DNA of 46,874 bases from a phage: sequence record PZ445467.1; one strand, 5' to 3'. The notes below the pieces were generated by a model. That model saw nothing but the letters and a program-made list of their open reading frames with translations. It was not told where the DNA came from and ran no database searches. The translations under genes and the position numbers were made by a program. Position 1 is the stretch's first letter. Each line of letters starts with the position of its first letter. Positions 27,016 through 34,212 of this stretch are shown in pieces.

Positions 27016-27016
<1 letters not shown>
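24074..27016 (+). CDS. tail tape measure protein
   Basis: 980 aa, Ala/Gln-rich helical protein with Ala/Thr low-complexity tract and hydrophobic segment near C-terminus. Confidence 0.85.
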
Positions 27017-31738
<4,722 letters not shown>

Positions 31739-31777
31739 TACAATATACATCAAATTCACAAAGGAGCATTTATTATA

Positions 31778-33685
31778 ATGACTACCACACCAACTAATAA
31801 ACCAATTCCGTCTGAAGACCCGCGCGACCTGAAATTTAATGCCGGGAAAATCGACGAGGTGGTAACATCTAACGCGCATTACTACACCGACCGCTTCGGA
31901 GTTCGCCGGTTTACTATCGCCGGTTTCCAATATACAGCAGAAGAAGCTATCCGTAATTATGGCTATATCACGATGGACAGTTTTGAGGATGGGGCGACAC
32001 TGACGTTGCCTAATCAGGTTCTGCGCTATGAGGCTACTGGCGAATATTACCGCTGGGACGGTGAATTTCCTAAAACTGTTTCTGCCGGCTCAACACCTGA
32101 AGCATCTGGTGGTGTTGGTATTGGTGCATGGGTTAGTGTTGGTGATGCTTCATTGCGCAGTGATTTGGCCCTAAGCACTGGCGCAGGGTTAGTTGGGACA
32201 ACATCCGGCAGGACCGTACAGGCAGAGTTTGACCATTTCAAAATAGGGTATATGACACCCGATGATTTCGGCGCGGTAGGTGATGGTGCCACCGACGACA
32301 CCACGCCTTTGCAACAGGCTATTGACTATTGTTCAAGCAACGGTATCGCGTTAAGAATCCCCGCAAAATCTTATGTTTGGAATGGCGGTATTATAACTTC
32401 ACCCATAACAATAATCGGTGACAGACGTCCAGATTACAATTTTAGCTCCAATTCTATGTCTAACGGGTCTGTCATAATTGGCAATTTAAGATTTTCCGCA
32501 AGCCAGGTGATTATTAAGTCACTTGGTGTGCGTAGGCCTACAGGCTCCCCCGGAGATTGTCTGGTGTTATCGACCGATAACTATGCTGGTGGGTCTTGTA
32601 TTGTTCAAGATGTAGTTGCCGCGGGCCTTTCCGGTTCGGACACGTACCACAGCGTTCTTGTTGAAGGCTACGATTCCGCGCATGTATCTCAAATAACTGG
32701 CGGTTATAATCTTTTTGGCCTCGCGATTAAGTCAAGAAACGTTGTTGCCAGAGGCGTAATAACCGTAAGCTGTGATACTGGCGTTATCATTAAATCTGAT
32801 AGTGAGTTCAGCACGGCAAAAAATGTGGTGCTGGACGGGCACATTAATGTCGGTAATGGTGTTTCTAGTCAAGGTGTTTGGATTTACAGCACAACCGCAC
32901 AACTTGAGCGTATTACCTGCGCAAACTTACAAAGCATCGATTCCGCTATACATATGCGGATTAAGTCCGAAAACGTAGCTAATGACGTGCAAATTGTTGG
33001 GGCAAATTATTCAGGATCTACTTATGCGGATGTGCTCGTCGAAGGCACTTCGGCTGGCACGTTGAACAATGTTAGTTTAGATAGTATAACCGCAGTAAAT
33101 AGCCAGAAATTTATGGCTGCAGGTTTCTGTGAACAACTGATGGTAACAGGATTCTATGGGTCCCTGAAACCCGGCGCTCCCGCCGATACTGCGTTTGAGG
33201 TTAGCGCCGCCGTAGGGCTTTTTAGCGGGTCAAATATCCAACTAGTCCGTCAATACAGCAGTGACCTAATGACAATGAATCTCGGTAACAGTTATCTTAA
33301 TAATAGATTATCATCTGTTAAGGCGAAAGTAATAGGAAACGGCAAACCTAGGCCTGGGTATAAAGAACAGAATCTTAGCGGCGCTGCGGCTACAATGATT
33401 GTTGGCGACAGTTTGGGGCCCTCTGGGGTTGTGTCTGTCACCGCGATATCCTCCGGCAGTTCATTCAGCAGTATTGCTATTAATGACGACTATGGTCAGC
33501 CGGTTAAGCCAGGTTTTCTTCTAATAATCCGAAACGCATCCGCTATCTCGTTCGTTATGAACCATAATCCAGGGTCTGGTGGAATCGCAAATAACGGGGC
33601 GGTTGGTAAGACCATTGCGGACGGAGACACTATAATGTACGTTTTTGACGGGACGAATTGGCGTCAAACTCCATCTATAGCTTAA
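31778..33685 (+). CDS. tailspike with pectate-lyase-fold (beta-helix) depolymerase domain
   Basis: 635 aa; DFGAVGDGATDDTTPLQQAIDYCSSNGIALRIPAKSY is the classic pectate-lyase-3 N-terminal signature; conserved N-terminal anchor region. Confidence 0.75.
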   Translation: MTTTPTNKPIPSEDPRDLKFNAGKIDEVVTSNAHYYTDRFGVRRFTIAGFQYTAEEAIRNYGYITMDSFEDGATLTLPNQVLRYEATGEYYRWDGEFPKTVSAGSTPEASGGVGIGAWVSVGDASLRSDLALSTGAGLVGTTSGRTVQAEFDHFKIGYMTPDDFGAVGDGATDDTTPLQQAIDYCSSNGIALRIPAKSYVWNGGIITSPITIIGDRRPDYNFSSNSMSNGSVIIGNLRFSASQVIIKSLGVRRPTGSPGDCLVLSTDNYAGGSCIVQDVVAAGLSGSDTYHSVLVEGYDSAHVSQITGGYNLFGLAIKSRNVVARGVITVSCDTGVIIKSDSEFSTAKNVVLDGHINVGNGVSSQGVWIYSTTAQLERITCANLQSIDSAIHMRIKSENVANDVQIVGANYSGSTYADVLVEGTSAGTLNNVSLDSITAVNSQKFMAAGFCEQLMVTGFYGSLKPGAPADTAFEVSAAVGLFSGSNIQLVRQYSSDLMTMNLGNSYLNNRLSSVKAKVIGNGKPRPGYKEQNLSGAAATMIVGDSLGPSGVVSVTAISSGSSFSSIAINDDYGQPVKPGFLLIIRNASAISFVMNHNPGSGGIANNGAVGKTIADGDTIMYVFDGTNWRQTPSIA

Positions 33686-33687
33686 AA

Positions 33688-33717
33688 CTAAGGCCCCGAA
33701 AGGGGCCTTTTATCTTT
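33688..33717. terminator. bidirectional rho-independent terminator
   Basis: stem AAGGCCCC/GGGGCCTT with GAAA loop, T-rich tail; between convergent tailspike and ssb. Confidence 0.7.
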
Positions 33718-33726
33718 GGTCACCAT

Positions 33727-34212
33727 TTAGAAGGGTATTGAATCATCGAAGTCTATCGGATGCTCATTGCCTCCTTGTATGCTTTGTTGTTTTTGCTGTT
33801 GTTGTTGCTGTTGCGATTGTTGGCCTGATTGCTGTCGTGGTTGCTGCTGACTGGAATCATCACGTTTACCACCAAGCATCTGCATAACGCCGCCCACCTG
33901 TGGAATAACAATCTCAGTGGTGTATCGGTCTACGCCATTGCTGTCAGTCCACTTACGAGTGCGTAGCTGACCTTCGATATAAACCTGCGATCCTTTGCGA
34001 AGGTATTCTCCTGCAACTTCTGCAAGTTTCCCGAAGATGACAACGCGATGCCATTCAGTTTGCTCTTTCTTTTCTCCTGTTTGCTTGTCCTTCCACTGTT
34101 CAGATGTTGCAACAGAAAGATTGGCAATTGCAGAGCCTGATGCTGAATATTTAACTTCAGGGTCGTTGCCGAGAGTGCCGACAATAATTACTTTATTTAC
34201 GCCGCGTGCCAT
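33727..34212 (-). CDS. ssb: single-stranded DNA-binding protein
   Basis: 161 aa; OB-fold-like N-terminus, Gln/Gly-rich linker, C-terminal DFDDSIPF acidic tail. Confidence 0.9.

Follow-up and report, generated by a model that had tools for sequence, protein, structure and literature searches.

The tailspike encoded in the phage DNA analysed here (46,874 bp, referred to as the window; GC about 0.467) is very probably the only receptor-binding protein of its phage, a modular molecule that anchors on the distal tail protein and both recognises and cuts the O16 O-antigen. As a host-range protein it is genuine, but of an ordinary kind that is already in the literature: genome context, O16 dependence, a predicted trimer and horizontal exchange of receptor-binding domains have been reported by Humolli et al. 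2025 (PMC11990801), and the docking mode has been described in the cryo-EM study of phage Sf11 (PMC12724387). A preliminary description of this DNA, which presented the protein as a host-range determinant that is not mechanistically novel, was right on both counts. Added here are the precise boundaries of the tailspike modules, an argument from substrate chemistry for a hydrolase, a shortlist of candidate catalytic residues (D260, D288, E296 and D341), and a likeness between the unexplained appendage of the distal tail protein and a GTA head spike fibre/carbohydrate-binding module. Because tailspikes determine which hosts a phage can infect and the O-antigen native to E. coli K-12 is O16, the protein offers a convenient model of O-antigen-dependent infection in a laboratory strain.

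The tailspike gene and its phage

The tailspike gene (31778..33685, plus strand) is an ATG-started open reading frame with exact ends that encodes 635 amino acids plus the stop codon. A ribosome-binding site, AAAGGAG, can be read from the sequence 11 nt 5' of the ATG (31760..31766, plus strand). Directly upstream lies the gene for the tail hub protein (29249..31738, plus strand; 829 aa), a J/TipJ-like protein that is matched by 9occ_E at 1774 bits, by phrog_469 and by the TipJ-related NCBIfam model NF040662, and whose Sf11 counterpart is gp14, 'baseplate hub 2'. On the other side, a G+C-rich hairpin (AAGGCCCCGAAAGGGGCCTT) with T-runs (33690..33709, no strand assigned) is a likely terminator by consensus match only, such sites being no more numerous in the window than in shuffled controls; it likely closes the rightward tail operon, facing the leftward SSB gene (33727..34212). 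Among the large open reading frames of the window, no second gene for a tail fibre or tailspike was found. Judging from Pfam, PHROG (38 tail families matched) and the match of the anchor to Sf11, the assignment as a tailspike is well beyond chance; NCBIfam contains no model that matches it.

The phage is a small, virulent E. coli siphophage of the Skatevirus cluster and almost certainly Escherichia phage SusanneMuster, Bas79 (PQ850629). Within the first 24 kb, 95% of the DNA aligns with Bas77 at 98% identity, that is the same Skatevirus-cluster genome. The siblings ClaudiaMuster Bas77, SandraMuster Bas78 and ChristineMuster Bas80 carry the same tailspike locus 3' of the J-like gene (PMC11990801), and over all 635 residues the tailspike is 98.6% identical to those of Bas77 and Bas78 and 98.1% identical to that of Bas80. 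The nine differences from the Bas77 protein (T2A, A103S, T289K, N430Y, A477T, M500I, S559A, D615G and T626A) all spare the invariant acidic residues considered below.

Domain architecture and predicted structure

The protein starts with a helical anchor (aa 1-60; 31778..31957, plus strand), delimited by alignment with Sf11 gp13, in which R16 and K19 are present. It is followed by a Tail_spike_N domain of the TSP1/gp66 type (aa 63-123; 31964..32146, plus strand), which Pfam PF18668 recognises with E = 9.4e-21 and 74.1 bits, as compared to a cut-off of 25. PDB matches of this region include CBA120 TSP1, TSP3 and TSP4, and a profile search matches it to the head-binding domain of the P22 tailspike (1lkt, E = 3.9e-6), which indicates that the two domains are related. 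The boundary of recombination with Kagunavirus tailspikes falls in a conserved linker or neck (GAWVSVGDASLRSDLALSTGAGLVG...; aa ~117-160; 32126..32257, plus strand), which is also the probable hinge of the molecule; the hinge of the Sf11 tailspike lies near residue 162 (PMC12724387).

The body of the protein (aa ~161-545; 32258..33412, plus strand) is a right-handed parallel beta-helix according to Pfam, AF2 and Foldseek. Pfam Pect-lyase_RHGA_epim (PF12708) matches aa 162-350 with 30.1 bits, above the gathering cut-off of 27. At the start of the body, family alignment and profile search delimit an N-terminal cap motif of the form DFGAxGDGxTDDT, the very signature quoted in the preliminary description, DFGAVGDGATDDTTPLQQAID, which occupies residues 163-183 (32264..32326, plus strand) and in which F164, G165, A166, G168, D169, G170, D173, D174 and T175 are invariant in the family alignment. 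The same description had termed the body Gly/Asn/Val-rich, and this is roughly correct: in aa 157-635, Gly accounts for 11.5%, Val for 9.0% and Asn for 6.9%, next to Ala (8.4%), Ile (8.1%) and Ser, which is highest at 12.5%. A C-terminal beta-sandwich (aa 551-629; 33428..33664, plus strand) is recognised by Phage_depo_C (PF25692; E = 6.5e-7, 30.2 bits versus a cut-off of 25).

Structure prediction, which had been proposed as a check of the fold, agrees with this picture. The AF2 model is all-beta over the beta-helix, and its pLDDT values are above 90 for aa ~160-630, mostly so in the beta-helix body; they are about 80-90 in the C-terminal domain, 74-86 in the Tail_spike_N domain and below 50 over the helical anchor (aa 1-60), where the monomer model is poor. 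All best Foldseek matches are beta-helix tailspikes or glycosidases (E values from 2.7e-12 to 1e-4) and include CBA120 TSP1/3/4, phi29 gp12, Sf6, HK620, phi92 gp150 and the K2-2 tailspike; further matches are viral tailspikes and depolymerases, among them Klebsiella capsule depolymerases. Compared globally with solved tailspikes, the model has low TM-scores (0.2-0.33), partly because the AF2 monomer misplaces the N-terminal domains, and the body is 11-16% identical to the matched solved tailspikes. At the sequence level, PDB profile matches end at the cap motif, and no solved relative of the beta-helix body was detected. Pfam domains, AF2 model and Foldseek matches thus concur in a tailspike with a conserved anchor and a beta-helix body, as had been described. 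The homotrimeric state is presumed by analogy with Sf11 gp13 and the AlphaFold-Multimer models of Humolli et al. (PMC11990801).

Predicted docking on the distal tail protein

The tailspike's docking partner would be the distal tail protein (27016..28389, plus strand; 457 aa), which matches Sf11 gp17 (9occ_C) with E = 3.6e-201. The Shigella siphophage Sf11 has the same hub proteins and gene order as the window. In its cryo-EM structure (9occ), residues 4-59 of the tailspike gp13 form a helical bundle with gp17 that involves salt bridges via R16 and K19 (PMC12724387). Both sides of this interface recur here: aa 1-154 of the tailspike align with gp13 (9occ_G) with E = 4e-73, R16 and K19 being conserved, while aa 1-225 of the distal tail protein are nearly identical to gp17 and the four interface glutamates E129, E136, E147 and E152 are kept in its adaptor helix (aa ~126-165; 27391..27510, plus strand). 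By homology to Sf11, the tailspike anchor is predicted to dock on this adaptor helix. The N-terminal helices (aa ~4-59) would pack against one adaptor helix per distal-tail-protein subunit, from which we infer an arrangement of six trimers around the tail tip; the Tail_spike_N domain and the linker or hinge (aa 63-160) would come next, and the C-terminal beta-sandwich would close the molecule. The similarity between the two spikes does not extend to the bodies, as the Sf11 tailspike has 585 aa, is Sf6-like and is specific for the Shigella flexneri O-antigen.

Exchange of the specificity module

The N-terminal anchor had been called conserved, and indeed aa 1 to ~140-200 are 68-88% identical across many Skatevirus-cluster phages, whose bodies differ. 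The reverse relationship is found in Kagunavirus. In Bas70-73 and vB_Ec_DUEC01, the tailspike gene shares 96-97% DNA identity with that of the window over gene nt 349-1908, whereas the N-terminal anchor (MSSGCGDVLSLADLQ...) is unrelated and matched to the Kagunavirus tail. Compared with its Bas70 counterpart, the gene becomes similar from nt ~349 and is about 97% identical from nt ~470 onwards; at the protein level, the tailspike shares 88-89% identity with those of Bas70-73 over the aligned region, aa 51-635. These phages show the same O16 dependence as the window's siblings (PMC11990801). The sequence comparison indicates that a specificity module, aa ~117-635, was swapped with Kagunavirus by recombination at the conserved linker; the anchor would meanwhile have kept its fit to the distal tail protein of its own phage. 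For conserved motifs of 44 nt and 95 nt at the end of anchor domains, a role as hotspots of recombination has been proposed (PMC10408124).

The target is the O16 O-antigen

The receptor of Bas79 is listed as O16 (Table S1, PMC11990801). Phages Bas70-82 are strictly dependent on the O16 O-antigen, and each has just one enzymatic tailspike gene, located 3' of the J-like gene (PMC11990801), the label 'enzymatic' being fold-based in this literature. In experiments testing both hosts, Bas79 yielded 1.4-3e8 pfu/spot on K-12 with restored O16 and none on the wbbL(-) strain (PMC11990801). One of nine other strains was lysed, a natural O16 isolate (PMC11990801), and neither of the K1/K2 encapsulated strains UTI89 and CFT073. 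Since plating of Bas79 on K-12 requires O16, its target is the O16 O-antigen and not a capsule. Of the two substrates offered in the preliminary description, capsule or O-antigen, only the latter is therefore compatible with the published data on Bas79 and its siblings. At 98.1-98.6% amino-acid identity to the siblings of the O16-dependent clade, the tailspike falls within the clade by the latter's close-homology test (Fig 11A, PMC11990801).

Of three natural O16 isolates, however, Bas79 lysed ST8281 alone, so that a factor other than the bare O16 backbone matters as well. O16 is subject to side-chain glucosylation, and Stevenson is said to have reported in 1994 that it is O-acetylated on rhamnose.

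Enzyme chemistry and candidate catalytic residues

The preliminary description had spoken of a pectate-lyase fold. Pectate lyases of families PL1 and PL3 gave the fold its name and share the parallel beta-helix fold class with the tailspike; the latter matches the rhamnogalacturonase/epimerase cap family PF12708, not a PL family, and a Pfam search of the protein returned no PL-family match. Polysaccharide lyases need a uronic-acid substrate for beta-elimination. The O16 repeat, Galf-Glc-Rha-GlcNAc, is devoid of uronic acid (PMC12773781), so that, from substrate chemistry, the tailspike is expected to be a glycoside hydrolase rather than a lyase. Moreover, the motif is common to GH28, GH55 and GH82 hydrolases and C5-epimerases. 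Hence, the name is apt for the fold but not for the enzyme.

The cap motif is a signature of the beta-helix fold and not the active site; in profile searches it was the only part of the body to match solved GH28, GH55 and GH82 enzymes and epimerases. Likewise, an attempt to place the catalytic residues by homology, with single-sequence as well as profile searches of PDB sequences, reached no further than the anchor domains and the cap motif. Given this result and fold matches at 11-16% identity, the catalytic assignment is a shortlist based on conservation. The tailspike is 32-39% identical to those of the O16-dependent phages Bas82, Bas105, Bas106, Huey, Dewey and Louie, and D260, D288, E296 and D341 are invariant among O16-phage tailspikes down to 32% identity, which makes them candidate catalytic residues. 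H291 was dropped as a candidate, being Asn in the close relative P0003.

The tailspikes of P22, Sf6 and HK620 and CBA120 TSP1-4 share the beta-helix architecture and a Tail_spike_N/head-binding-type N-domain with the window's tailspike, for which their receptor-destroying role towards O-antigen is presumed; their bodies differ, with only 11-16% identity and another sugar specificity, and their catalytic residues are not transferable. The groove is located inside a subunit in P22 and HK620 and between subunits in Sf6. The beta-helix would bind O16 and most probably cleave it hydrolytically, which would allow the virion to work through the lipopolysaccharide and reach the outer membrane.

Alternative activities of the tailspike

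It is unlikely that the beta-helix merely serves as a rigid O16 adhesin that binds without cleavage. Such a role would fit the fold-based origin of the activity label in the clade, the lack of a match between its candidate catalytic residues and those of solved enzymes, and the absence of an NCBIfam model. Yet, in five phage genera, four acidic residues of the body show no variation even where identity falls to 32%, as would be expected of an active site, and a phage whose sole receptor-binding protein holds a long O-chain must still reach the membrane. In addition, the structurally matching tailspikes of P22, Sf6, HK620 and CBA120 are enzymes, and to our knowledge this applies to all well-studied O-antigen tailspikes of this fold. 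An enzyme of another kind, an esterase that removes O-acetyl groups from O16, is a very unlikely reading. Its model would be gp63.1 of phage G7C, which deacetylates the O-antigen of its host and also contains a Tail_spike_N domain (4qnl), and O16 reportedly offers a substrate in its O-acetylated rhamnose. The match to 4qnl is nevertheless limited to the N-terminal domain (aa 57-132), the Pfam search of the tailspike revealed neither an SGNH nor any other esterase domain, and the body is a beta-helix that resembles glycosidase tailspikes.

There is hardly any chance that the tailspike depolymerises a capsule or colanic acid, although several annotations and fold matches point this way: aa 259-545 match phrog_8280 (E = 4e-16), a family labelled 'tail spike protein with colanic acid degradation activity', the Huey homologue is annotated likewise, and Foldseek matches include the phi92 colanidase and Klebsiella capsule depolymerases. 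These fold matches are at just 11-16% identity, the encapsulated strains UTI89 and CFT073 are not lysed by Bas79, and Bas79 and all other phages with this body fail to plate on the isogenic wbbL(-) K-12 strain, which differs only in this gene of O16 synthesis and keeps the colanic-acid genes. In view of the published wbbL dependence, the reading taken from the phrog_8280 annotation was rejected, and hydrolytic cleavage of O16 is the activity we favour.

An appendage of the distal tail protein

At its C-terminus, the distal tail protein has an appendage that is optional (aa 160-457; 27493..28386, plus strand; core aa ~217-403) and resembles the GTA head spike fibre and carbohydrate-binding modules. 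The core is recognised by NCBIfam NF048003 of the GTA head spike fibre family (E = 8.6e-25) and matches Rcc01080 in PDB 6tb9 (E = 3.5e-7); its AF2 model has pLDDT values of 80-95, and Foldseek matches it to CBM4, 6, 16, 22 and 61. In RcGTA, the head-spike-fibre family binds capsule polysaccharide. It is conceivable, albeit doubtful, that the appendage acts as a second, non-enzymatic adhesin for glycan recognition and pre-adsorption, present in six copies beside the six tailspike trimers. If so, the published picture of O16 phages with a single receptor-binding protein would have to be revised, and a role could be assigned to the 'unknown' appendage of the Sf11 cryo-EM map.

The appendage is about 90% identical to that of Kagunavirus Bas70-74, has diverged in the core from Sf11 gp17 (aa ~226-400) and is absent from ST1UNAM and from Bas81, where the distal tail protein has a natural length of 157 aa. 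As both appendage and tailspike body are Kagunavirus-like, while the docking interface is Skatevirus/Sf11-like, the two outward modules look as if exchanged independently of the interface. In the phage database, all carriers of the ~90% identical appendage variant possess O16 tailspikes that belong to either type A or type B. A strict coupling of appendage and tailspike specificity was nonetheless rejected, given that the O16-dependent phage Bas81 lacks the appendage and that metagenomic contigs combine this variant (84-86%) with two additional tailspike bodies that are unrelated, types C and D. For the type C body (701 aa), the phage collection contains no relative; the type D body (606 aa) shares 33-35% identity with the spikes of phages whose hosts are O8 and O157.

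The tailspike has a predicted beta-helix body

The tailspike is encoded by an ORF of 635 aa with an ATG start on the plus strand (31778..33685), exactly the position assigned in the preliminary description. The ATG is preceded at a distance of 11 nt by an AAAGGAG ribosome-binding site, and a G+C-rich hairpin at 33690-33709 stands between the gene and the convergent SSB gene. A Pfam search revealed three domains above the curated thresholds, namely Tail_spike_N (residues 63-123; 74 bits vs a cut-off of 25), Pect-lyase_RHGA_epim (residues 162-350; 30.1 vs 27) and Phage_depo_C (residues 551-629; 30.2 vs 25). In addition, 38 PHROGs families match the protein, the majority being tail fibre or tailspike families. 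The body, that is the part beyond the N-terminal anchor, has a high content of Ser, Gly, Val, Ala, Ile and Asn.

We built an 18-sequence homologue alignment and modelled the protein with AlphaFold2. Residues ~160 to ~630 are nearly all beta-strand, with pLDDT mostly >90. Model quality is poor in the first 60 residues and in the neck (123-156), in keeping with segments whose helical bundles form only in the trimer. Searching the PDB with the model by Foldseek returned beta-helix tailspikes and glycosidases, namely TSP3, TSP1 and TSP4 of CBA120 (E down to 2.7e-12), phi29 gp12, Sf6, HK620, the phi92 colanidase and the Klebsiella K2-2 tailspike; across these matches, identity is only 11-16% and the global TM-score only 0.2-0.33. 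A viral library gave the same picture. The preliminary description had named a missing beta-helix as grounds for abandoning its reading; since AlphaFold2 and Foldseek both predict this fold, these grounds do not apply. The tailspike finding is thus real, and its interpretation is correct according to Pfam domains, PHROGs matches and predicted fold. Protein, receptor, fold class, modular exchange and attachment mode have all been described for this very phage group in publications of 2025. The feature is therefore already known, in line with its earlier rating as not mechanistically novel.

The O16 O-antigen as receptor

Escherichia phage ClaudiaMuster (Bas77) and the window are 98.3% identical across 95% of the window's first 24 kb. 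DNA identity of the tailspike gene is 99.1%, 99.1% and 98.9% to its counterparts in Bas77, Bas78 and Bas80, respectively, all O16-dependent siphophages from the Skatevirus cluster in the second BASEL collection (PMC11990801). Bas79 alone of the Bas77-81 group is missing among the database matches. The window has a GC content of 0.4667, and Table S1 lists Bas79 (SusanneMuster, PQ850629) with 0.467 and the host receptor 'O16-type O-antigen' (PMC11990801). On length, GC content and near-identical siblings, the window is presumed to be the complete Bas79 genome.

Phages Bas70-82 are reported to depend fully on restored O16 O-antigen and to have one receptor-binding protein each, described as an enzymatic tailspike; it contains a pectin-lyase-like domain, and its gene directly follows the J-like gene. 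The tailspikes are further described as homologues that horizontal exchange has spread across siphovirus and podovirus genera (PMC11990801). A scan of the larger ORFs of the window revealed no second fibre or spike gene. On O16-restored K-12, Bas79 yielded 1.4-3 x 10^8 pfu per spot in experiments that also tested the isogenic wbbL(-) strain, which lacks O16; the latter gave zero plaques in four experiments (PMC11990801), when the entry 1e-06 in the raw data sheet is read as a placeholder for zero. Deletion of nfrA left plating unaffected, and UTI89, CFT073, 55989, S. Typhimurium, E. coli B and O16-negative K-12 were not lysed (PMC11990801). These plating data resolve the earlier alternative 'capsule or O-antigen' in favour of the O16 O-antigen, while the capsule part falls away. 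Among natural E. coli O16 isolates, one of three was lysed by Bas79 (ST8281, but not ST131 and ST144; PMC11990801, supplementary file 8), which, given the strict need for O16 on K-12, suggests a tailspike sensitive to strain-specific O-unit modifications.

Chemistry and candidate active site

The O16 repeat is Galf(beta1,6)Glc(alpha1,3)L-Rha(alpha1,3)GlcNAc (PMC12773781). As it contains no uronic acid, beta-elimination is chemically impossible, and the tailspike, if it cleaves its receptor, must be a hydrolase. Hence, the original label 'pectate-lyase' is apt for the fold but not for the chemistry. Searches of PDB sequences, both single-sequence and profile-based, matched the body only in the cap motif (residues ~160-215), which comprises the quoted motif DFGAVGDGATDDTTPLQQAID (residues 163-183). 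Matching proteins are GH28 polygalacturonases, GH55 glucanases, GH82 iota-carrageenase and mannuronan C5-epimerases. The motif is a signature of the fold, located where the N-terminus caps the helix, and not a catalytic motif. In an alignment with the tailspikes of the O16-dependent phages Bas82 (Nonanavirus), Bas105 (Kayfunavirus) and Huey (Lederbergvirus), which are 32-38% identical, D260, D288, E296 and D341 are the sole invariant acidic residues in the helix body; K318 and K339 are likewise invariant. The four acidic residues are the obvious candidates for the active site and targets for mutagenesis. H291 was discarded, being Asn in one close relative.

Anchor and docking at the tail tip

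Tailspike residues 1-154 match the tailspike gp13 of the Shigella siphophage Sf11 (PDB 9occ chain G, E = 4e-73), and a profile of the family also reaches the head-binding domain of the P22 tailspike (1lkt, E = 3.9e-6). The proposed conserved N-terminal anchor was borne out, as many Skatevirus-cluster phages carry it, at 68-88% identity, on spikes with other bodies; spikes sharing only the anchor include ones annotated as endosialidases. In the Sf11 cryo-EM structure, residues 4-59 of three gp13 chains bundle with a single adaptor helix from gp17, the distal tail protein; in this helical bundle, gp13 K19 makes salt bridges to gp17 E136, E147 and E152 and R16 a longer-range contact to E129. Six gp13 trimers ring the tail tip, and a hinge lies near residue 162 (PMC12724387). 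R16 and K19 are present in the window tailspike. The 457-aa distal tail protein of the window (27016..28389) matches gp17 with E = 3.6e-201, is nearly identical in residues 1-225 and keeps all four interface glutamates, and the 829-aa hub matches Sf11 gp14. From this conservation we infer with confidence that the Sf11 docking mechanism applies to the window tailspike.

An exchangeable appendage on the distal tail protein

The distal tail protein is a mosaic of phrog_384 (residues 1-156) and phrog_11600 (residues 133-457; unknown function), and a Pfam search of it gave no matches. Its C-terminal appendage (residues 160-457; window 27493-28386), 'of currently unknown function' according to the Sf11 authors (PMC12724387), is ~90% identical to the protein of Kagunavirus Bas70-74, XY2, 590B and NTEC3, and only 42-52% identical in other Kagunavirus phages. 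Sf11 has the flanks in common but a diverged core (aa ~226-400), and in Bas81 and ST1UNAM, with a distal tail protein of 157 aa, the appendage is wholly absent. Residues 217-403 score 88 bits against NCBIfam NF048003 'GTA_spike_fiber' (cut-off 36; E = 8.6e-25). They also match a PDB entry, Rcc01080, the head spike fibre of RcGTA; when fluorescently tagged, this protein binds Rhodobacter cells in a capsule-dependent manner (PMC10218006). The AlphaFold2 model of the core (pLDDT 80-95) resembles the beta-jelly-roll modules CBM4, 6, 16, 22 and 61 (TM-scores 0.55-0.67, normalised to the target). Together, these matches, the binding by Rcc01080 and the CBM-like model make a glycan-binding role plausible, and the appendage may represent a second, non-enzymatic glycan-binding module.

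That the appendage variant tracks the tailspike type was ruled out, since the same variant occurs with four bodies: the window-type body (contigs L011 and L012), the unrelated Bas74-type body (Bas74, XY2, NTEC3), a 701-aa spike (metagenomic contig L013, 12261-14366) and a 606-aa spike (metagenomic contig L014, 12308-14128). The appendage is thus not strictly coupled to tailspike type, but an optional accessory module exchanged independently. The 701-aa body has no relative among 50,697 phage records, and the 606-aa body shares no more than 33-35% identity with spikes from phages of O8 and O157 hosts; these two bodies sit on Skatevirus-like and Kagunavirus-like tails.

Mosaicism of the tail tip

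The first ~348 nt of the tailspike gene have no useful DNA similarity to Kagunavirus Bas70; similarity starts around aa ~117, in the conserved linker GAWVSVGDASLRSDL, and reaches ~97% from nt ~470 to the stop codon. In the tail-tip region, Skatevirus/Sf11-like patches (distal tail protein aa 1-160, genes 28407-31738, tailspike aa 1-116) alternate with Kagunavirus-like ones (distal tail protein aa 160-457, 90% at the aa level; tailspike aa 117-635, 97% at the nt level). The patchwork across 27016-33685 implies two separate recombination patches, in which outward-facing modules were replaced and the docking interface was preserved. The Bas81 tailspike (L010, 9342-11498) appears to combine a Skatevirus anchor with the type B body of Bas74 (L006, 10855-13035), as local matches have strings such as RTRIVGVYPETYFMAL and FDRVGWASRATYAIYSESLAGN in common; this would be a second body exchange between Skatevirus and Kagunavirus. 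Type B bodies lack a Pfam beta-helix match. Finally, a gene for an NlpC/P60-family minor tail protein of 171 aa (28825-29340; PF00877, E = 8.5e-9) shares its last 92 nt with the start of the J-like hub gene and occupies the position of a lambda K-like tail-tip assembly protein.
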